DNA of 64,000 nucleotides from Escherichia coli (GTDB taxonomy: Bacteria; Pseudomonadota; Gammaproteobacteria; Enterobacterales; Enterobacteriaceae), in the NCBI RefSeq assembly GCF_009931435.1, contig NZ_CP043414.1, one strand, 5' to 3'. The translations under genes and the position numbers were made by a program. A model generated the notes under the pieces. That model was not told the DNA's origin, searched no databases, and worked only from the letters and a program-made list of their open reading frames with translations. This document shows positions 23,135-48,734 of the stretch, piece by piece (within the stretch, counting starts at the first letter, position 1; each line of letters begins with the position of its first letter).

Positions 23135-23684
23135 TGAGATAATTTCCTGATGAACGAATTAACGAACATAGGCAGACACAAATAATGGTGTCTGCTTGTC
23201 AGAAAAACCGGGGATTTCCCGGTTTCCTTTTCCGCAGAAAAGGAAATACCTTTATGTAAGAAAGTACACCGCCACCTAATATATCCAGTGCCTGTAGCCA
23301 CTCATCAGGTGGTTGGGCGCGGGATTATATTTTTATTTATGGGTGAGAATTTAGCTTTTTGTGCAAACCATTAAATAGATACCTAAGTTATATTTCTTAC
23401 TCTGCGGACAGTGAATAATTCATTATTCAGAGTGAATAATAATGACCTACCTTTAATTAGCAACTATCGGAAATACGTCGAAGTAGGTATATACGCCAGG
23501 ATAAACCGATATATTTTTTATGGATATTCATTTTCCTTCATCAGACTGTGAATTGCAGGGATATCGAACTTGCACGACTCATCGCAACACTCAAACAGAT
23601 TTATGAATTTCGTTCATAACCCCTGACAAATCCTGCCGTCTAATCGCGTGACTCCCTTTACGTTATGCTTCTCATGAACGATAA

Positions 23685-24275
<591 letters not shown>

Positions 24276-24467
24276 GCGATTATGCATCTACCTATTTACG
24301 TCGGTCACTCAGTCAGAGTCTTGCCCATATTCAATGAGGTTCAACACCGCAGCCAATGAAAAGTAGGCCATGCGGGGATTAATAGCATTACTCATTAATC
24401 AATCGCTCTTTTCATTTACGTGCTCTTTATGTAACATATTGCTTTTATTGATCTTCCTGGAGTTTGC

Positions 24468-24824
24468 ATGAATAAGAATCTCATCCTCGCATTTGCATTA
24501 TTTTCCTTACCTGTATTTGCAGAAGAAGATCTGGGGCCAGGCAAATATGTTTGTGACATTAGGATTTCCAGCCTGGATACCGCTACTCAAATTCTGTCAA
24601 AATCCGCAACAGTTCTCGATAATGGAAACAATTTCATCGTTCAAATGCCAAATGGAGATCAATTGTACTCTCCAGATCTGGAAAATGTTGATGATGGTAT
24701 AAAACAAAAAGCAACAATAGGTGGAGTGACATTTATTCGTCGTCCAACTTTTAACGATCGCTTCATCGTGGAAGATGGAAATACAGGATTCTTCTATAAG
24801 ATGCGAAACTGCGAGAAGAAATAA
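24468..24824 (+). CDS. hypothetical secreted protein (118 aa, two Cys)
   Basis: N-terminal signal peptide MNKNLILAFALFSLPVFA; no family recognised. Confidence 0.55.
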   Translation: MNKNLILAFALFSLPVFAEEDLGPGKYVCDIRISSLDTATQILSKSATVLDNGNNFIVQMPNGDQLYSPDLENVDDGIKQKATIGGVTFIRRPTFNDRFIVEDGNTGFFYKMRNCEKK

Positions 24825-25112
24825 AGGAAGTTTGATAGCGATATCCTCCTGATTTTCAGGCTTTGTACCTGTTCAAGACTTACAACTACAAGCCGCTACG
24901 TGTTAACGCCTCCCAAAATAACCACCGTTAACCGTAGCGGTCATAGATACTATTATTTTAGCCACATTACTGGTGATAATGATAATTGATATTATGGCCG
25001 TATAGAAAATAAGCATTAATTATCAGAAAGTTTATTATGTAAACGCGTCCTAATGATTACGTTATTCCTCTTACCGATATTCGCCCAGAGCAACCATCAA
25101 TTACACATATCA

Positions 25113-26039
25113 TCAATTTTCGAGTTTTACTCTTTTCTCCACCATAAAATCAATAAAAGCACGAACTTTAGAGGGCATTCTCACCCGTGATGAAACATAA
25201 ATATAAAATCCAGGAAATGAAACAGCCCAATCCTCAAGAATCGGCTGTAACTTGCCCGCATTGATATGTTCAGCGATTGCAAAATCCAGATGTTGAATGA
25301 TACCCGTTCCATTCAGCGCCATTCGTATCATGCTTTCGTCATCATTAGAAATATACTTACCTGAAACCTCTATTTCGAACTCTTCATTACCCCCCACAAC
25401 ATTAGAAAACTCCCATGCAGAGAGTGCACCGCTACTTTTATGCCGCAACCGAAGGCAATTATGGTTACTCAGTTCCTGAGGCGTTTCAGGAATACCGTGT
25501 TCTTTTAAATAATCTGGCGATGCCACAGTAACCAGTTTAATAAGCGGAGAAACAGGAACGGCAGTCATATGCTCATCCAGTCCTTGCTCAAGACGTATGC
25601 CCACATCACAGCCGTCCGCAATAATGTTAGATAAACCGTCATCCATAATGAGTTCTATCTTTGTTTTGGGGTAACGAGTAAGAAACTCGCCAATATGAGG
25701 CTCAACAAGCATCCGTGCTGCAACACGGGAGGAATTTATTCTCAACAGGCCTGTAGGTTCAAGTTGGGTATCACCAACATCTTTCAAAGCATCATCAATT
25801 TGCCCCAAAGCCGACACCAGCACTTCATACAGACGCTGTCCTTCCTCAGTAAGCGACATATTGCGGGTCGTACGGTATATCAGCTTGGTGTTAAGACGTT
25901 CCTCAAGAGATTTTAAATTCTGGGACAATGCGGCCCGCGTAATACCCATTTCAGAAGCGGCTCTGGAAAAACTGCCGGCACGAACAATCAGCGCAAACCA
26001 GGCAAGAGAAGGCAAAATTGAAGGCTCTATTTTCATCAT
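25113..26039 (-). CDS. LysR-family transcriptional regulator
   Basis: LysR HTH (GSFSRAASEMGITRAALSQNLKSLEERL); probable start at MMKIEPS; divergent from the hydrolase gene. Confidence 0.85.
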   Translation of the reverse strand: MMKIEPSILPSLAWFALIVRAGSFSRAASEMGITRAALSQNLKSLEERLNTKLIYRTTRNMSLTEEGQRLYEVLVSALGQIDDALKDVGDTQLEPTGLLRINSSRVAARMLVEPHIGEFLTRYPKTKIELIMDDGLSNIIADGCDVGIRLEQGLDEHMTAVPVSPLIKLVTVASPDYLKEHGIPETPQELSNHNCLRLRHKSSGALSAWEFSNVVGGNEEFEIEVSGKYISNDDESMIRMALNGTGIIQHLDFAIAEHINAGKLQPILEDWAVSFPGFYIYVSSRVRMPSKVRAFIDFMVEKRVKLEN

Positions 26040-26195
26040 TGTAAACCTTAACTTAACACTGTGATAGATATTAGACCATTGATGATAACCAATACAAGTC
26101 ATACTATTACGCCGTTCTCGATATGAACACAAATGCCAGTTGCGGATAATAGAAATGATATTTAAATCTGTTTAGGCAAATCCCTGGAGCTTGAA

Positions 26196-27116
26196 ATGAA
26201 AACGGTTTCGATAAAACACACTTACTGGGATATAGCTGCTGATATCTATTTCCCTGACGATTTTAATAGTGAAAAAAAGTATCCTGCCATTATCAGTGCC
26301 CATCCAATTGGAAGCTGCAAAGAACAGACATCGGGTAGTGTGTATGGTGCCGCCCTGGCAAAAGCTGGCTTTATCGTCATTGCTTTTGATGCCAGTTTTC
26401 AGGGAAGCAGCGGTGGAGAACCGCGTTATCTGGAAGATCCAACAATGCGAGTAAAAGACTTCAGCATTGTCGTTGATTACCTTACCACCTTACCTTACGT
26501 TGATGCCGGGCGTATTGGTGTACTGGGTATTTGTGGTGGAGGTGGATATGCCATTAATGCCGCAATGACAGAACGTCGGATTAAAGCCATTGGTACTGTC
26601 ACGGGTGCTAACTACGGGCGTCTTATGCGTGAGGGATTTACAGCGTTTAATCCTATCGGAGCACTCGAAGCAATGGCGCAACAAAGAACAGACGAAGCTA
26701 ACGGCGCAAAACTTCGCGTAGATGATTTGCTCCCTTCTTCTCCGGAAGCAGCTCTTGAAGCGGGATTAACAGAAATAGACCTTTTTGAAGCAACAGAATA
26801 TTATCGTTCGCCACGAGGCTGTGCGCCTAATGGGGTAAATCGTTCGCTATTTTCACATCAGACTGTTGCCGTGGGCTGGGATGCTTTTCATCTTGCAGAA
26901 GTCCTGTTAACTCAACCACTAATGGTTGTAGTGGGCGATAGAGTGGGCGCTTTTGGTGCCTATCGTGACGGCTGCGAAATTATTGGTCGTGCAGCCTCAA
27001 AACATAAAGAGTTGGTCGTGGTTGAAGGTTATTCACATTACGACCTGTATGATAAGCCAGAACCTGTGAAACAGGCGCTCGATAAATTAATTCCTTTTTA
27101 CAAAACACATTTGTAA
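26196..27116 (+). CDS. alpha/beta-fold hydrolase, no signal peptide
   Basis: 306-aa ORF with nucleophile-elbow-like LGICGGGGYA; paralogous to the ORF at 45817..46953. Confidence 0.8.
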   Translation: MKTVSIKHTYWDIAADIYFPDDFNSEKKYPAIISAHPIGSCKEQTSGSVYGAALAKAGFIVIAFDASFQGSSGGEPRYLEDPTMRVKDFSIVVDYLTTLPYVDAGRIGVLGICGGGGYAINAAMTERRIKAIGTVTGANYGRLMREGFTAFNPIGALEAMAQQRTDEANGAKLRVDDLLPSSPEAALEAGLTEIDLFEATEYYRSPRGCAPNGVNRSLFSHQTVAVGWDAFHLAEVLLTQPLMVVVGDRVGAFGAYRDGCEIIGRAASKHKELVVVEGYSHYDLYDKPEPVKQALDKLIPFYKTHL

Positions 27117-27288
27117 TAACCTTGCAGGGAGATTCATTATCTCCCTGAGATTTATCCTTTATTGACTACACGACAATAATAAAATTACTCAAAAAGAATT
27201 CTATTAAAGGAAAAAAGCATCAAAAAGTAGCAACTCAACTTATTAAGATTATACGCATTAAAATCAGATAAACATTTGAGGTATTGTT

Positions 27289-28431
27289 ATGATAAATAAA
27301 CACCCATCATTGTTTTCTCCTTTTATGCTGACAGAAAAAATAAAGCTACGTAATCGTATCGTTATGGCCCCTATGACGACCTGGTCAGCTAATCCTGATG
27401 GAACCATCTCTGAGCAAGAACTCGAATTTTATAAACGTCGCTCACAAAATGTTGGTTTAGTAATAACAGGATGCACCTATGTCACGCCAAGCGGCATTGG
27501 GTTTACTCATGAATTTGCCGCATATGACGACCGTTTCATTAACAGCCTTGAAAAGTTAGCTGCTGCAGCCAAAAGTGGCGGTGCTCCGGCTATTTTGCAG
27601 ATTTTCCACGCCGGTAATAAAGCCATCCCGGAGCTTGTGCCAAATTACGATGTTATTAGTGCCAGCGCATCAAGCGTAAAATCTGGTGACTTTATGAAGA
27701 GAGTGGTACAAAGCAGGGAAATGACTGAAAACGAAATTCAGGAAACCATTAGAGCATTCGGAGATGTCACAAAAAGGGCGATTAAAGCAGGTTTTGATGG
27801 CGTTGAACTTCATGGTGCGCACGGATTCCTTCTGCAGAATTTCTTCTCCCCTCTATTTAACCAGCGTAATGACCGATGGGGAGGAGATCTTGAAGGACGT
27901 ATGCGCTTCCCGCTGGCCGTATTACAGGAAGTAAAAAATGTAGTCTATGAATATGCGAAAAAGCCCTTTGCCATCGGTTACAGAATATCTCCTGAAGAAT
28001 CTGTAACAGGGGGGCTGCGGATAGAGGATACTTATAAACTCCTTGATCGGCTCATTTCATCCGGTATTTCGTATATACATACCTCGCTGGTCAGTATTAA
28101 CGATAGCTACCCTGTTGAGTCGCCAAATGGCCCCCGAACTATTGAATTGATTTTAAATCATATTGCAGGCAGAGTGCCGGTAATCGCCGCAGGTAAAATA
28201 CGCACACCTTCTCAGGCTCAAGAAGCAATTTCCGCTGGCCTGCCACTTGTTGCGATCGGTAAAGGGCTGGTGATAAATCCAGAATGGGTGACTTTAGCTG
28301 AATCAGGTAGAAGTCATGAAATTCAAACAGCCCTTAATCCACAACGCGTTCCTGAATTAACCATTCCGGATAAACTATGGGATCAAATTCAGGCATCGAA
28401 AGGAACTGGCTGGTTTCCGTTAATGGATTAA
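27289..28431 (+). CDS. NADH:flavin oxidoreductase (Old Yellow Enzyme family)
   Basis: 380-aa ORF; N-terminal LRNRIVMAPMTT and HGAHGFLLQNFFSP motifs typical of OYE/NemA-like enzymes. Confidence 0.85.
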   Translation: MINKHPSLFSPFMLTEKIKLRNRIVMAPMTTWSANPDGTISEQELEFYKRRSQNVGLVITGCTYVTPSGIGFTHEFAAYDDRFINSLEKLAAAAKSGGAPAILQIFHAGNKAIPELVPNYDVISASASSVKSGDFMKRVVQSREMTENEIQETIRAFGDVTKRAIKAGFDGVELHGAHGFLLQNFFSPLFNQRNDRWGGDLEGRMRFPLAVLQEVKNVVYEYAKKPFAIGYRISPEESVTGGLRIEDTYKLLDRLISSGISYIHTSLVSINDSYPVESPNGPRTIELILNHIAGRVPVIAAGKIRTPSQAQEAISAGLPLVAIGKGLVINPEWVTLAESGRSHEIQTALNPQRVPELTIPDKLWDQIQASKGTGWFPLMD

Positions 28432-28903
28432 ATATCTATTACTCTCCCGAGAGTAAAACTATCAAACCAATGAGTAACCGATACAGCCTCGCAAATTCTT
28501 TCAGATAATTAACCCGTCACTGCGGCACGTTCTCTCATAAGGCGTGCCTGCTGTGTAATCCAGTATGTATCCGGCATACTTGACGGTTTAATAGAACTCA
28601 ATTCCTTTCCCAGGTAACCAACAACGATATCTTGTATAACACCCCAGGAGATACGACATTATGATGAGATGAGGTATGCTCCTCAGCGCCAATCAACGCC
28701 AGGGCTGGGCCAGTTTTGAGATCAGACTCATTCCCGGACTGACTTCAGGCGACATATATCAATGACGTTGGGGCAATAAAAGATAGCCGATGTAATACAT
28801 CTATTCAAATTTGTGATACATGTCAAAAAATTGGTTGACCAAACTCGTTATTTATATAAGGGCACTTACGAAGTGCACTCTTTTTTAAAGCGAGGAAGTA
28901 CCA

Positions 28904-29005
28904 ATGAAAGAGAATAAAGTACAGCAAATCAGTCATAAACTGATTAATATCGTTGTTTTTGTCGCAATTGTAGAATACGCCTATTTATTTCTCCATTTCT
29001 ATTAA
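28904..29005 (+). CDS. ykgR: 33-aa hydrophobic small protein (likely YkgR by synteny)
   Basis: ATG at 28904 preceded by GAGGAAG; MKENKVQQISHKLINIVVFVAIVEYAYLFLHFY has a single TM-like segment; lies just upstream of ykgM. Confidence 0.5.
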   Translation: MKENKVQQISHKLINIVVFVAIVEYAYLFLHFY

Positions 29006-29047
29006 TAACGGCAATAAACTGTTCACTTCAGTGATATTTAAAATATG
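28940..29047 (+). repeat. dispersed repeat, copy A (second copy at 48263..48369, about 94% identical)
   Basis: By-eye alignment of about 108 nt shows roughly 6 mismatches and 1 indel. Confidence 0.7.
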
Positions 29048-29340
29048 CATCCTCTCCCTTTTTTTTAAGTGATTATTATATCCGTGGGAGAGGAATACAC
29101 GCTATCAGGTAATCAATCAAACTGCGATAAATCATCGGCCAGTAAAGTGGAGATAGCCTCCATTCTCGAAAAATTCATACTCTCAGCGAAACCATCATCA
29201 ATCACTCATCCAGGCGTTTATGGGAGCGTCGCCAATGGCTGCTAACAATGCCAGACTTCCCCGTTGCCGAAATTCCACATACCACAAATGGTCACAGGGA
29301 TTGGGTGTTGAAATGATCCGGATGAGCATGTATCTTTACG

Positions 29341-29358
29341 GTTATGTTATAACATAAC
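29341..29358. promoter_or_regulatory. Zur box upstream of ykgM
   Basis: Perfect 18-bp palindrome GTTATGTTATAACATAAC centred 17 bp upstream of the ykgM start; resembles the Zur operator. Confidence 0.7.
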
Positions 29359-29366
29359 AGGTAAAA

Positions 29367-29633
29367 ATGATGAAACCCAATATCCATCCTGAGTATCGTA
29401 CTGTGGTGTTCCACGACACCAGCGTTGATGAGTACTTTAAAATCGGCTCGACTATCAAAACAGACCGTGAGATTGAGCTGGATGGCGTAACGTATCCGTA
29501 CGTAACAATTGATGTCTCTTCGAAATCGCACCCGTTCTATACAGGGAAGCTGAGAACAGTGGCATCAGAAGGAAATGTTGCACGGTTCACCCAACGTTTT
29601 GGTCGTTTTGTTAGCACGAAAAAGGGGGCGTGA
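29367..29633 (+). CDS. ykgM: ribosomal protein L31 paralog (type B, zinc-independent)
   Basis: 88-aa [22 protein letters not shown]... with L31 signature and no CxxC zinc ribbon. Confidence 0.92.
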
Positions 29634-29773
29634 TGAAAGTCCTTAACTCTCTGCGTACCGCAAAAGAACGCCATCCAGACTGTCAGATTGTGAAGCGAAA
29701 AGGACGGCTGTATGTGATTTGTAAATCTAATCCACGTTTTAAGGCCGTTCAGGGGCGTAAGAAAAAGCGTTGA
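29633..29773 (+). CDS. ykgO: ribosomal protein L36 paralog
   Basis: Not in the track (below size cutoff). ATG overlaps the ykgM stop (TGATG); translates to [46 protein letters not shown], 46 aa. Confidence 0.88.
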
Positions 29774-29807
29774 TTCATAATTCGCCGGATTAACGATATT
29801 TGTCTGA

Positions 29808-30035
29808 TTAATAATCAGACCGGATTAATGTTGGTGTATTGATTACACCAACATTAATTTTCCTGGAAATATATTCTTTAAGTTCATTTAAAGCCAACTG
29901 CCTGACGTTTCTCTCCGAATATTCCATTATATTAATGTTGATTTGTTGACCAACTTCGCCCCTGTATGCTGGTATCAACTCTCTTTTAGACTGAACAAGC
30001 CACTCCGCCCCCTCCCTTTGCGGAGCAGCCTGCAT
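29808..30035 (-). CDS. hypothetical 75-aa protein (ykgL-like by position)
   Basis: Track ORF only; overlaps the ykgMO terminator hairpin, so it may be spurious. Confidence 0.3.
   Translation of the reverse strand: MQAAPQREGAEWLVQSKRELIPAYRGEVGQQININIMEYSERNVRQLALNELKEYISRKINVGVINTPTLIRSDY
29824..29858 (+). terminator. ykgMO terminator hairpin
   Basis: ATTAATGTTGGTGTA-TTGAT-TACACCAACATTAAT, a perfect 15-bp inverted repeat followed by TTTTCC. Confidence 0.5.
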
Positions 30036-30791
30036 TTACACTCAAACTGTTAAGATGATAAATGTGGTAAATCTGTTGGTACTAACATAAAAACGTTTAC
30101 GCCACAGGAACAGCCTGATCCACCGGTAACCCCATCGCCGACGTTCGAGTGCCAGTTAGAGTAACGCGCACAGATGACTGCACGCAGTGCCCTGTCAAAG
30201 AGGCCATCGTTCCTGTGACAGCTGGCAGCCTTCGTTTAACTTCACTTAATTTGGCTCTTGGGGGGGCTTACCGAACAGATGACGTAGTCACACCTATTCA
30301 ATTTTTCACCACTTATTGGAGTAAACACCCATAACCATTTTGTGCGGCATGTTAATCCATTAAAACACCTTATTTATTGTCAAATCTTCTTTAATGATGG
30401 TCAATAATAGTTTTATGTTCTATTTATTATCATTAAAACTTGTTTTTTTACTAGTCGAGCACAAAACGCATTAAGACTATTCCTAACACCTCAGGGCAAA
30501 GTTCCTGGCTAATATAAAATGCAAGTAAGAATTGAACGTTATATTGCCAATAACCTTATGAAACTGAATGTCTTTTTCTTCTTATCAAAAAAGCAATATT
30601 TTCATTTTTAGTAAATATTGACTTAACCATGGAATTCCTTTTCTGTTCACATATTGACACTCATCAGGAAAAAAACATAAATTTAAGCCCAATCGAAAAT
30701 AATTAAAACTTAATCTCGTTTAACCTATATTGATATGTGCTACGTATCTTATTTACTTCCGATTTACTAACAACACTGAATGTACTTGTAA

Positions 30792-31403
<612 letters not shown>

Positions 31404-47139: not shown

Positions 47140-48024
47140 ATGGCGAAAAGGGAGAACTACAACGAGCTGTACCTGTTTATGCAGGTGGTGCGGGAAGGCA
47201 GCTTTACCGCAGCGGCTCAGCGGCTGGGTCTTGCTCAGTCAGGAGTCAGCCGTTCTGTTCGCGAGCTTGAAGAAAGGCTCGGCGTCCAGCTGCTGGTGCG
47301 CACCACGCGTAAACTGTCGCTGACGCAAGCAGGCGAGCAGCTCTACCAGAAGACGGCATCTGGATTTGAAATGTTAGATCTTGGGCTTGCCACACTGGCG
47401 CACTATCGAGAGACGCCCTCCGGCACGGTGCGTATCAATGCCAGCCAGCACGCGATTGATAAATGCCTGCTGCCAAAGCTGGCGGTATTTAAACAGCGAT
47501 ATCCTGATATCCGGCTTGAACTGATAAATGAGAGCCGGTTCGTCGATATCATCGAGGAAAGATTCGATGCTGGTGTCCGCCTGGGGCCTGAAGTCGGCCA
47601 GGGTATGGTCGCGGTACGCATCACGCCCGATATGGAGATGGCAATTGTGGGGACTCCGGAACATTTTCGTCGCTATGGTTTTCCGCAAACCCCGGCGGAT
47701 TTAAAGGCGCATCCCTGTATCGCCTATCAGTTTGCCGACGGCAGCGTATACCAGTGGGAACTCAATCAGGATGATAAAAAAATCACTCATCGCCCTGAAG
47801 GGCAATGGGCCCTATCCGACAGCTATATGGAAGCAGAAGCCGCACGGCTGGGCCTCGGATTGGCCTATGTTCCTGTTGAACTGGTTGCGGATGATTTAGA
47901 ACACGGTAAGCTTATCAGAGTGTTGCAGCGTTACAGCCTGCGAATGGAGGGATTGTTTCTCTATTACCCTCATCGCAACGTCTCCCCCGCTCTGCGGATG
48001 GTCATTGATACATTGAAAATCTGA
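47140..48024 (+). CDS. LysR-family transcriptional regulator
   Basis: 294-aa ORF with LysR HTH (GSFTAAAQRLGLAQSGVSRSVRELEERL). Confidence 0.85.
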   Translation: MAKRENYNELYLFMQVVREGSFTAAAQRLGLAQSGVSRSVRELEERLGVQLLVRTTRKLSLTQAGEQLYQKTASGFEMLDLGLATLAHYRETPSGTVRINASQHAIDKCLLPKLAVFKQRYPDIRLELINESRFVDIIEERFDAGVRLGPEVGQGMVAVRITPDMEMAIVGTPEHFRRYGFPQTPADLKAHPCIAYQFADGSVYQWELNQDDKKITHRPEGQWALSDSYMEAEAARLGLGLAYVPVELVADDLEHGKLIRVLQRYSLRMEGLFLYYPHRNVSPALRMVIDTLKI

Positions 48025-48262
48025 ACGTTAACAACGACCGACTCTTCACTGTGCAATATTGTGTCAGGTAGTCACTCTGCGTTCAATTCCAGGGGCCGCT
48101 TTGAGCGAGAAAGAGCGGACTTATCTGTACAAGGGGACTATCCAGCAATGGAGATCACCCATAAGAAAAAAGTACCTGGCTCCCTCGACAACCTTCATCC
48201 GGGAATTTAGCCTCAATCAACATTTTTATATCTGTCAGGTTACTTCATTATGAAAACCGATC

Positions 48263-48369
48263 AATATCGTTGTTTTTGTTGCAATAGTAGAATACGCCTA
48301 TTTATTCCTCCATTTCTATTAATAACGGCCATAAACCGTTCACTTCACTGATATTTAAAATATGCATCC
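48263..48369 (+). repeat. dispersed repeat, copy B (decayed ykgR-like segment)
   Basis: About 94% identical to 28940..29047; the upstream part differs by a roughly 30-nt deletion plus a 1-nt insertion, which destroys the ykgR reading frame. Confidence 0.7.
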
Positions 48370-48734
48370 TTTTCCTGCTTTTCAAGTTGTTCAGCGGCGT
48401 AAGAAAACGTATTAAATATGAATTCGACGATTTAACCATTTCTGTCTGATTGGTAATCATCTGTGATTAATGCTGGTCTATTGATTACGCCAGCATTAAC
48501 CGCTTAGGGATGTATTCTTCCTGATCATATACATCCCTCGAAAAAGAGAGAAAATAAAACTGTGTCCAATATTACTCTACCACTCCAGACCGAAGTATCG
48601 GTAGAATTAGCAGAACGACTGGTACAATAGATTGGGATAGCGTCATTTGTCAGGTATTCCATTGCCTGACAAATGACAATTTTGAGTCAATAGACGTGCT
48701 TCTTGATCATGTCTTACAAATTATACCATGAACC

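Follow-up and report, generated by a model that had tools for sequence, protein, structure and literature searches.

A LysR–hydrolase–Old Yellow Enzyme module of Escherichia coli as a candidate inducible detoxification or catabolic unit with a predicted cysteine-type hydrolase

We analyzed a 64-kb window of Escherichia coli chromosomal DNA (the whole stretch under study; all coordinates are positions in it), in which three neighboring genes encode a LysR-type transcriptional regulator, an alpha/beta-fold hydrolase, and an Old Yellow Enzyme (OYE)-family flavin mononucleotide (FMN) oxidoreductase. The three genes are a unit that moved as a unit, and the stable core of such loci consists of a regulator, a cysteine-type hydrolase, and some NAD(P)H reductase, the OYE being the reductase present in Escherichia. 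We tentatively propose, at slightly less than an even chance, an inducible module in which the hydrolase would open an ester-, lactone-, or thioester-type bond and the flavoenzyme would reduce an activated alkene, quinone, or carbonyl. We regard protection from a reactive compound of foreign origin as more likely than nutrition. The genes are arranged as follows.

25113..26039, minus strand: LysR-type transcriptional regulator, 308 amino acids from the annotated ATG (open reading frame (ORF), Pfam HTH_1/LysR_substrate, RefSeq annotation of relatives)
26196..27116, plus strand: alpha/beta-fold hydrolase of the YcjY/PA2218 family, 306 amino acids (ORF, Pfam, PDB matches)
27289..28431, plus strand: OYE family FMN oxidoreductase, 380 amino acids (ORF, Pfam PF00724)

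An earlier note on this DNA had described a divergent LysR gene, a hydrolase gene, and then an OYE gene; all three ORFs were found at the positions it gave, and Pfam hidden Markov models supported each family (LysR, alpha/beta hydrolase, and Oxidored_FMN). The regulator matched HTH_1 (PF00126, 5.6e-19, residues 11-68) and LysR_substrate (PF03466, 3.4e-29, residues 94-301), and its ORF, as listed, runs on to a TTG at 26132, as opposed to the annotated start. RefSeq names the proteins in relatives ‘LysR family transcriptional regulator’, ‘alpha/beta hydrolase’, and ‘NADH-dependent flavin oxidoreductase’. No NCBIfam equivalog reached its cut-off for any of the three proteins; the best for the regulator, YafC, scored 193 of 470 bits.

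The hydrolase matched several alpha/beta-hydrolase families of Pfam partially, the best being Peptidase_S15 at 7e-10. The closest solved structures were those of YcjY (5xb6, 3.7e-67) and Pseudomonas PA2218 (2hdw, 2.9e-44), both over residues 12-306, and the protein is a paralogue of E. coli YcjY with 41% identity. Its nucleophile elbow reads G-I-C113-G-G, with Cys113, not serine, as the nucleophile. Cys113, Asp248, and His281 did not vary among 19 diverse orthologues. The motif G-x-x-G-[IVM]-C-G-[GA]-G was present in 77 of the 77 orthologues tallied from 80 hydrolase-orthologue loci, the sample that also underlies the neighborhood counts below; the His conservation over these loci is partly circular, as the His motif was among the search patterns. 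In the AlphaFold model (mean predicted local distance difference test score, pLDDT, 67.5; lid residues 139-229 below 50, core confident), which was used only for triad placement, the three residues are located after beta5, beta7, and beta8. The predicted catalytic triad is Cys113-Asp248-His281. A second cysteine, Cys41 (HPIGSCKEQ, in the loop after beta3), is fixed in the orthogroup and replaced by Val in YcjY and PA2218. No signal peptide was detected in the hydrolase sequence. The ester or lactone hydrolysis previously suggested for this protein agrees with the hydrolase fold, but the Cys nucleophile and the YcjY/PA2218 family membership set it apart from a typical serine esterase. Membership in the dienelactone hydrolase family (PF01738) was rejected, as the profile matches only residues 28-131 (7.5e-5) and not the full length.

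A Cys nucleophile in a G-x-C-x-G box would also suit an acyl-transferring enzyme, that is, a transferase or polymerase with a Cys-thioester intermediate, as in polyhydroxyalkanoate synthases. YcjY was once proposed, from this motif, as a candidate short-chain poly-hydroxybutyrate polymerase (review, PMC3709699). No experimental support for this assignment was found, and no acyl-CoA-forming or acyl-carrier gene lies consistently nearby in the 80 loci. Dienelactone hydrolases use Cys-His-Asp for plain hydrolysis, a role that such triads thus also serve, and we regard acyl transfer by the module enzyme as very unlikely.

Hydrolase orthologues showing 62-83% identity occur in Burkholderiales, Pseudomonas, Stenotrophomonas, Acinetobacter, alpha-proteobacteria, Actinobacteria, Bacteroidota, Nitrospira, and an Enterococcus, and the entire range (62-92% identity, at least five phyla) is saturated at synonymous sites. 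In comparisons with Burkholderia, Cupriavidus, Mycobacterium, and Rhodococcus, the proteins were 76-83% identical, with just 27-30% identity at third codon positions. The GC content at third codon positions (GC3) of the orthologues matched that of each host, from 0.23 to 0.86. Recent horizontal transfer as the source of the high protein identity was ruled out by the random-level identity of the third positions and the host-matched GC3, which together indicate that the hydrolase spread is old and purifying selection unusually strong. Selection of this apparent strength is unusual for an accessory enzyme.

The 80 loci also revealed with which genes the hydrolase keeps company. A 211-amino acid NmrA-like NAD(P)-binding protein (best PDB match 3qvo, ‘NmrA family protein’) is encoded in 53 of them, usually adjoining the hydrolase. 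An orthologous divergent LysR gene (39-57% identity) is present in approximately 30, facing away from the hydrolase or the NmrA operon, and approximately 25 contain a tandem YcjY-type paralogue (HPGGGVKEQ). Further partners are reductases of the short-chain dehydrogenase/reductase (SDR) type and flavodoxin-like genes. The OYE-bearing loci comprise three from Escherichia, three from Acinetobacter, one from Microbulbifer, two from Paraburkholderia, and one from Caballeronia. The gene order in both Paraburkholderia loci (L060 and L064) is hydrolase-NmrA-OYE, with a gap of 4-10 nucleotides (nt) between NmrA and OYE; the Caballeronia locus (L074) also holds the hydrolase and the OYE. In Enterococcus alishanensis (L085, 4011-6909) and Streptomyces muensis (L053, 3935-6915), aldo-keto reductases lie directly upstream of the hydrolase on the same strand, with 41-57% identity to two reductases of the full E. 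coli island described below, indicating that the aldo-keto reductase-hydrolase pairing recurs across phyla. The regulators were of the LysR type in Proteobacteria, the AraC type in Bacteroidota and Acinetobacter, and the MLTR type in Actinobacteria; such switching between phyla is typical of inducible accessory functions.

The pairing of a hydrolase with a reductase, as suggested previously, therefore stands, but the conserved core partner is the NmrA-like NAD(P)H reductase, and the OYE appears in just 10 of the 80 loci. Neither the window nor any other Escherichia copy of the module has the NmrA-like gene. A deleted NmrA gene in the Escherichia hydrolase-OYE spacer, proposed from the gene order of the nearest relative, was left unproven, as tblastn detected no remnant there. 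The interchangeability of reductases with unrelated folds suggests that the reduction is generic, for example of an enone, a quinone, or a carbonyl, and the module represents, in one local form, a pairing of hydrolase and NAD(P)H reductase that is very widespread.

The OYE matched Oxidored_FMN (PF00724) at 1.8e-77, with residues 7-343 aligned to positions 1-341 of the 342-position model. Its active-site residues are Thr30, Trp32, His175, His178, and Phe180. In YqjM and OYE1, two His residues bind the activating group of the substrate, and a Tyr (Tyr196 in OYE1 and Tyr169 in YqjM) protonates C-alpha. The alignment to Thermoanaerobacter 3krz (HGAHGF in the window OYE versus HAAHGY) showed that the His-His pair, His175 and His178, is retained and that Phe180 is aligned with the position of the Tyr proton donor, while Thr30 and Trp32 stand where YqjM-type enzymes have Cys26 and Tyr28. 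The best structure match was the Staphylococcus aureus NADH:flavin oxidoreductase 3l5a (9e-47, residues 7-366). This is the closest solved OYE structure and its alignment includes the C-terminal extension, but it lacks the His-His pair (ISIAQRLL versus LHGAHGFL), and the name under which it was deposited points to no particular function. All ten hydrolase-linked OYE orthologues read HGAHGF and APMTTWS. Among 150 OYE representatives (50% clustering), 103 carried Tyr and 29 Phe, the closest clusters being His-His-Phe and the next tier His-Asn-Tyr. These relatives were taken from a 50%-cluster search, as a word-index search gave only near-identical E. coli proteins. Membership in the named equivalogs was rejected, based on NCBIfam scores of 176.8 against a cut-off of 431 for NamA and 118.8 against 403 for NemA; those for FadH, BaiCD, and the bilirubin-reductase type were also below cut-off.

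The ene-reduction previously suggested for this gene is in keeping with its OYE family, but with the canonical Tyr proton donor missing, plain ene-reduction is not assured. Some OYEs tolerate the loss of the active-site Tyr. The enzyme in this respect resembles EasA of ergot alkaloid biosynthesis, in which a natural Tyr-to-Phe change separates the isomerase type from the reductase type, and for the Phe-bearing isomerase type a transient reduction with isomerization, instead of net reduction, was proposed (PMC10034635). EasA differs in being a fungal biosynthetic enzyme that is only distantly related.

The same neighborhoods bear on a catabolic role, in which a specific plant- or microbe-derived ester or lactone would serve as a nutrient, with the LysR protein sensing the substrate and the enzymes feeding central metabolism. 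Catabolic operons classically have a LysR gene divergent from the enzyme genes, and the module shares this arrangement. Several orthologous loci lie beside genes for thiolase, CoA-transferase, enoyl-CoA hydratase, acyl-CoA dehydrogenase, and aldehyde dehydrogenase, a beta-oxidation-type set, and the very high conservation of the hydrolase would fit one defined substrate. However, these beta-oxidation-type neighbors vary from locus to locus, no transporter or further pathway enzyme is consistently linked in the 80 loci, and the Escherichia module has just two enzymes. Interchangeable partner reductases of unrelated folds would also be unusual for a dedicated pathway step, and we consider nutrient catabolism unlikely.

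We next turn to the inheritance of the three genes as a unit. The complete module was present in 2105 of 5426 complete E. coli genomes (39%). The surrounding variable DNA was delimited by comparison with K-12.

23686..28339, no strand: DNA missing in K-12-type genomes, which delimits the variable island around the module (blastn of the K-12 locus against the window)

Sampled E. coli genomes without the module, K-12 included, retain just window positions 28340-28431, which correspond to the final 92 nt of the OYE gene, and RefSeq annotates this 92-nt scar in K-12 as an incomplete hypothetical protein, a C-terminal gene fragment. The exact absence of 23686-28339 together with the leftover 3' end of the OYE gene establishes that K-12-type strains lost the module through one common 4.65-kb deletion. 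Most carriers have a longer island, with two intact aldo-keto reductase genes and a second LysR gene upstream (e.g., strain XH992). In the window lineage, strain 2020CK-00188, and O157:H7 Z1504, 2.28 kb of the full island, containing the 3' part of one aldo-keto reductase gene, the second aldo-keto reductase gene, and the second LysR gene, is replaced by 0.68 kb with a 118-amino acid ORF. The replacement segment (24262-24938) has a GC content of 38% and leaves the first aldo-keto reductase as a 191-amino acid fragment; the 118-amino acid ORF (24468-24824) has a signal-peptide-like N-terminus and no family match.

In E. albertii, only window positions 25127-28446 are shared (85.6% identity), at a different locus, flanked by sapB on one side and a ybcM-ybcL-emrE-integrase block on the other. 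An IncF plasmid of Klebsiella variicola (NZ_CP103422, 58559-69476) carries the LysR gene, the hydrolase gene, an NmrA-like SDR gene, and the OYE gene beside a Tn3 transposase gene. The encoded proteins are 84.5% (LysR), 91.5% (hydrolase), and 81% (OYE) identical to those of the window, with 78% identity of the coding DNA. The common boundaries in E. albertii and in the Klebsiella plasmid copy show that the three genes moved as a unit, and the module is probably an anciently acquired accessory unit. Directly after the plasmid module are genes for a regulator resembling PgrR, a hydrolase with 92% identity to YcjY, and a third hydrolase paralogue, so both paralogous module types are mobile together on this plasmid.

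Several conjugative E. coli plasmids (e.g., IncF pH22_122286) also encode a third hydrolase paralogue, 53% identical and in the layout LysR / SDR / hydrolase, which adjoins IS100 and the colicin Ia gene in plasmids of the pH22_122286 type. A 4.4-kb contig labeled ‘MAG: Collinsella sp.’ is 97-99% identical to the E. coli module and is almost certainly E. coli DNA mis-binned into a metagenome-assembled genome.

The regulatory anatomy bears on whether the three genes are also expressed together. The non-coding elements are as follows.

26054..26066, no strand: candidate LysR recognition site, T-N11-A palindrome TAACACTGTGATA (predicted from sequence)
26078-26093, plus strand: second conserved dyad ATTG-N8-CAAT (identical in Escherichia and on the Klebsiella plasmid)
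26078..26107, plus strand: this dyad together with the putative weak promoter that it overlaps, with -35 TTGATG at 26079-26084, a 17-nt spacer, and -10 TACTAT at 26102-26107 (read by eye)
27125..27147, plus strand: hairpin CAGGGAGAT-N5-ATCTCCCTG, possible attenuator or terminator, 8 nt past the hydrolase stop codon
27117..27288, plus strand: hydrolase-OYE spacer, the slot of the NmrA-like gene in relatives (approximately 136-244 nt among Escherichia)

The LysR-hydrolase intergenic region comprises 156 nt and is 96% conserved across Escherichia species, against 85.6% identity for the three-gene block between E. coli and E. albertii. Its first approximately 60 nt are nearly identical on the Klebsiella plasmid, where the coding DNA is 78% identical. 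The putative operator and promoter are thus conserved more strongly than the coding DNA. The palindrome TAACACTGTGATA has its sole exact match in the 64-kb window at this position. It does not vary among E. coli, E. albertii, and Escherichia sp., and the Klebsiella plasmid copy is almost unchanged; at the equivalent position, other genera have dyads of different sequence around a CTG core in their orthologous intergenic regions. The TTGATG/TACTAT promoter scores under the threshold of the promoter scan and is conserved in Escherichia and on the Klebsiella plasmid. Its overlap with the second dyad is the arrangement usual for LysR-activated genes and would fit LysR control of the hydrolase.

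The hairpin behind the hydrolase gene has a predicted folding free energy (dG) of -15.3 kcal/mol (z -3.4), is followed by a weak U-tract, and, in five Escherichia sequences, has invariant stems and a variable loop. On the Klebsiella plasmid, the corresponding place is occupied by another hairpin (G6/C6), located 61 nt ahead of the NmrA-like gene. The Escherichia hairpin may serve as an intra-operon attenuator or a transcript-end stabilizer. The spacer length variation among Escherichia includes a 79-nt indel. The extra 79 nt are found in most E. coli (L001 9946-10024 and L002 10524-10602) and are missing from the window, where the insertion point is 27251-27252; they hold two short hairpins, CCCTTTGAAGGG and GCCAG...CTGGC. 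No sigma-70 promoter was detected in the hydrolase-OYE spacer at the scan threshold, and hand-picked weak candidates there were rejected, as they were not conserved. No LysR box was found upstream of the OYE gene.

These features could also fit an arrangement in which a LysR-regulated hydrolase and an independently transcribed, general-purpose OYE are functionally separate neighbors, the OYE being in, or replacing, the reductase slot. The conserved hairpin directly after the hydrolase stop, the spacer varying from 136 to 244 nt, and the confinement of the LysR palindrome to the LysR-hydrolase region would all agree with this, as would OYE orthologues whose sole companion is an AraC regulator, that lie among SDR genes, or that stand by themselves, and the scarcity of the OYE among the hydrolase loci. 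Conversely, the copies in E. albertii and on the Klebsiella plasmid show joint inheritance of the three genes, with boundaries that coincide exactly, the OYE gene lies in a tight operon behind hydrolase-NmrA at the two Paraburkholderia loci and shares the hydrolase locus in Caballeronia, and in the window it is on the hydrolase strand with no promoter-like site found in the spacer. Moreover, no good U-tract follows the hairpin, and on the plasmid a comparable hairpin stands ahead of the NmrA gene in a gap of just 61 nt. We assign a fairly low probability to functional separation. Co-transcription and co-regulation of the hydrolase and the OYE are unproven and, given the conserved hairpin, the variable spacer, and the missing LysR box before the OYE gene, not obvious.

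Among the closest known counterparts is the E. coli pgrR (ycjZ)-ycjY-ymjD/ymjC(-mpaA) system, with a divergent LysR gene, a 306-amino acid Cys-type alpha/beta hydrolase, and then a reductase gene. The hydrolases are 41% identical paralogues, and the window LysR is 32% identical to PgrR. An intact pgrR-ycjY-SDR locus was found, with an unbroken version of the SDR gene that in K-12 exists as the fragments ymjC/ymjD; this intact YmjC/D protein is 58% identical to the NmrA-like partner of the module orthologues. Both module types stand side by side on the Klebsiella plasmid and in many genomes. The window module differs in having an OYE for the NmrA-like reductase, in lacking mpaA, in the conserved Cys41 (Val in YcjY and PA2218) of its hydrolase, and in being accessory (39% of genomes), which the ycjY locus is not known to be. 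PgrR is named a ‘regulator of peptidoglycan recycling’ with a regulon including ycjY-ymjDC-mpaA (PMC5934670), and the NemR regulon is listed in the regulator table of the same source. By analogy, the window module might serve cell-wall peptide recycling, considering the shared layout, the paralogous regulator and hydrolase, and the described role of PgrR. However, no mpaA, ycjG, or mppA homologue accompanies the module in E. coli or in the 80 loci, the peptide-degradation role of YcjY itself is only inferred from its neighbors, and the partners of the window module are redox enzymes. This function has a very small probability.

Two other systems resemble parts of the module. NemR-NemA-GloA likewise places an OYE-family reductase under a dedicated sensor-regulator and teams it with a second detoxifying enzyme; it is unlike the module in that the regulator is of the TetR type, NemA is a classical OYE with a Tyr donor, and the partner is glyoxalase I. 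In chlorocatechol degradation, a Cys-His-Asp dienelactone hydrolase opens an unsaturated lactone, and an NAD(P)H-dependent maleylacetate reductase reduces an activated C=C bond. This pair is the best chemical analogy to a Cys hydrolase followed by an ene-reductase, but the window hydrolase is only a partial match to dienelactone hydrolase, no catechol-pathway genes lie nearby, and the maleylacetate reductase family differs from both OYE and NmrA.

The mechanism that we infer, which takes in LysR binding and activation, OYE co-expression, the chemistry, and the physiological role, would proceed as follows. The LysR protein would bind the conserved dyads just upstream of its own gene and, upon encountering a small-molecule effector, would activate the weak hydrolase promoter, whose putative -35 element lies inside the second dyad. 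The cytoplasmic hydrolase would form an acyl-thioester at Cys113 and open an ester, lactone, thioester, or similar bond. Its product, or a co-occurring electrophile, would then be handled by an NAD(P)H-dependent reductase, which in most bacteria would be the NmrA-like protein; in Escherichia, the OYE would fill this slot and reduce, or possibly only isomerize, an activated C=C bond, a quinone, or a nitro group. With the hairpin behind the hydrolase gene, the OYE is probably expressed less than the hydrolase, without the two being fully uncoupled.

In favor of an inducible hydrolysis-and-reduction module are the observed protein families, unit inheritance, tight Paraburkholderia operons, partner pattern in the neighborhood statistics, regulator switching, and conserved non-coding elements including the operator, together with the predicted triad. 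The location of the locus among aldo-keto reductases and rclRABC adds to these, as does the paralogous pgrR-ycjY-(NmrA-like ymjC/D) module, which has the same layout and is reportedly bound and regulated by PgrR. The detoxification or catabolic pathway of hydrolysis plus reduction that the earlier note had suggested is still the most reasonable reading, with the genes forming one evolutionary unit, although the comparative data have altered the picture.

Several observations weigh against it. The OYE orthologue is found in 10 of the 80 loci, with 55-62% identity outside Escherichia, and three representatives of its subfamily have an AraC gene as sole companion, lie among SDR genes, or stand isolated. 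Given the Tyr-to-Phe change, the OYE might not catalyze net reduction. Between the hydrolase and the OYE there are a stable, conserved hairpin and a spacer of variable length, and no LysR box lies before the OYE. The 76-83% identity of the hydrolase to its Burkholderia and Mycobacterium orthologues is more than expected of a promiscuous detoxification esterase, and this extreme conservation suggests a very specific constraint. Enzymes that transfer acyl groups also typically have a Cys nucleophile. The literature searched yielded nothing on the expression, binding, or enzymatic activity of the three genes, and Z0367, which appears there only as a ‘protein of unknown function’, could not be linked to the module genes.

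A bolder version of the hydrolysis-and-reduction proposal would make the hydrolase (Cys113-Asp248-His281 plus Cys41) the core of an unrecognized two-step defense or salvage system in at least five phyla, always recruiting an NAD(P)H reductase of the NmrA, OYE, SDR, or aldo-keto reductase type and acting on one specific, ubiquitous reactive metabolite. The Escherichia OYE, without the Tyr donor, would then be non-canonical, for example an isomerase or an enzyme with a different proton source. We consider this version improbable. Cys41 might make the hydrolase redox-switched.

The closest match of the 6.1-kb region was E. coli strain 2020CK-00188 (98.9%), and that of the three genes alone was E. 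coli strain RMDEC465 (99.9%). The placement between fdeC and ykgR given for the module is correct but incomplete, as a truncated aldo-keto reductase gene (23700-24275) and the 118-amino acid ORF (24468-24824) also lie between fdeC and the LysR gene. Its nearness to the rcl cluster and aldo-keto reductases was confirmed, with rclRABC and another aldo-keto reductase gene approximately 8-12 kb upstream. The description of the module as an AT-rich block holds insofar as its GC content is 43.2% versus 49.8% for the window and its genes have a GC3 of 34-38% versus 53% for fdeC and 58% for ecpA. However, the whole stretch 23135-31400, including non-coding and small-gene surroundings, has a GC content of 41.6%; AT-richness is therefore not specific to the module. 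Elsewhere in the window, 48254-48387 holds a degenerate, frame-shifted second copy of ykgR with downstream DNA, approximately 87% identical to 28937-29069, in a low-GC gap after a LysR-family gene (47140-48024).

The module belongs to a familiar kind, the small LysR-controlled detoxification or catabolic operon, and its annotation is generic. Worth recording are the extraordinary degree to which the Cys hydrolase is conserved, the rule-like way in which it pairs with interchangeable reductases, and an OYE subfamily without the Tyr proton donor. The module is carried by approximately 39% of sequenced E. coli, including O157:H7 strain Z1504 and a urinary isolate, and is absent from K-12, so that all functional genomics based on K-12 has passed it by. 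Should the module detoxify an electrophile of dietary, host, or disinfectant origin, it would contribute to strain-specific stress tolerance from a site next to the rcl chlorine-resistance genes. The hydrolase family is among the most strongly conserved accessory enzyme families seen here, and its paralogues YcjY and PA2218 have solved structures. The neighborhood rule, a Cys hydrolase with an interchangeable NAD(P)H reductase, is a starting point for assigning functions in this family, including those of K-12 ycjY and ymjC/D.

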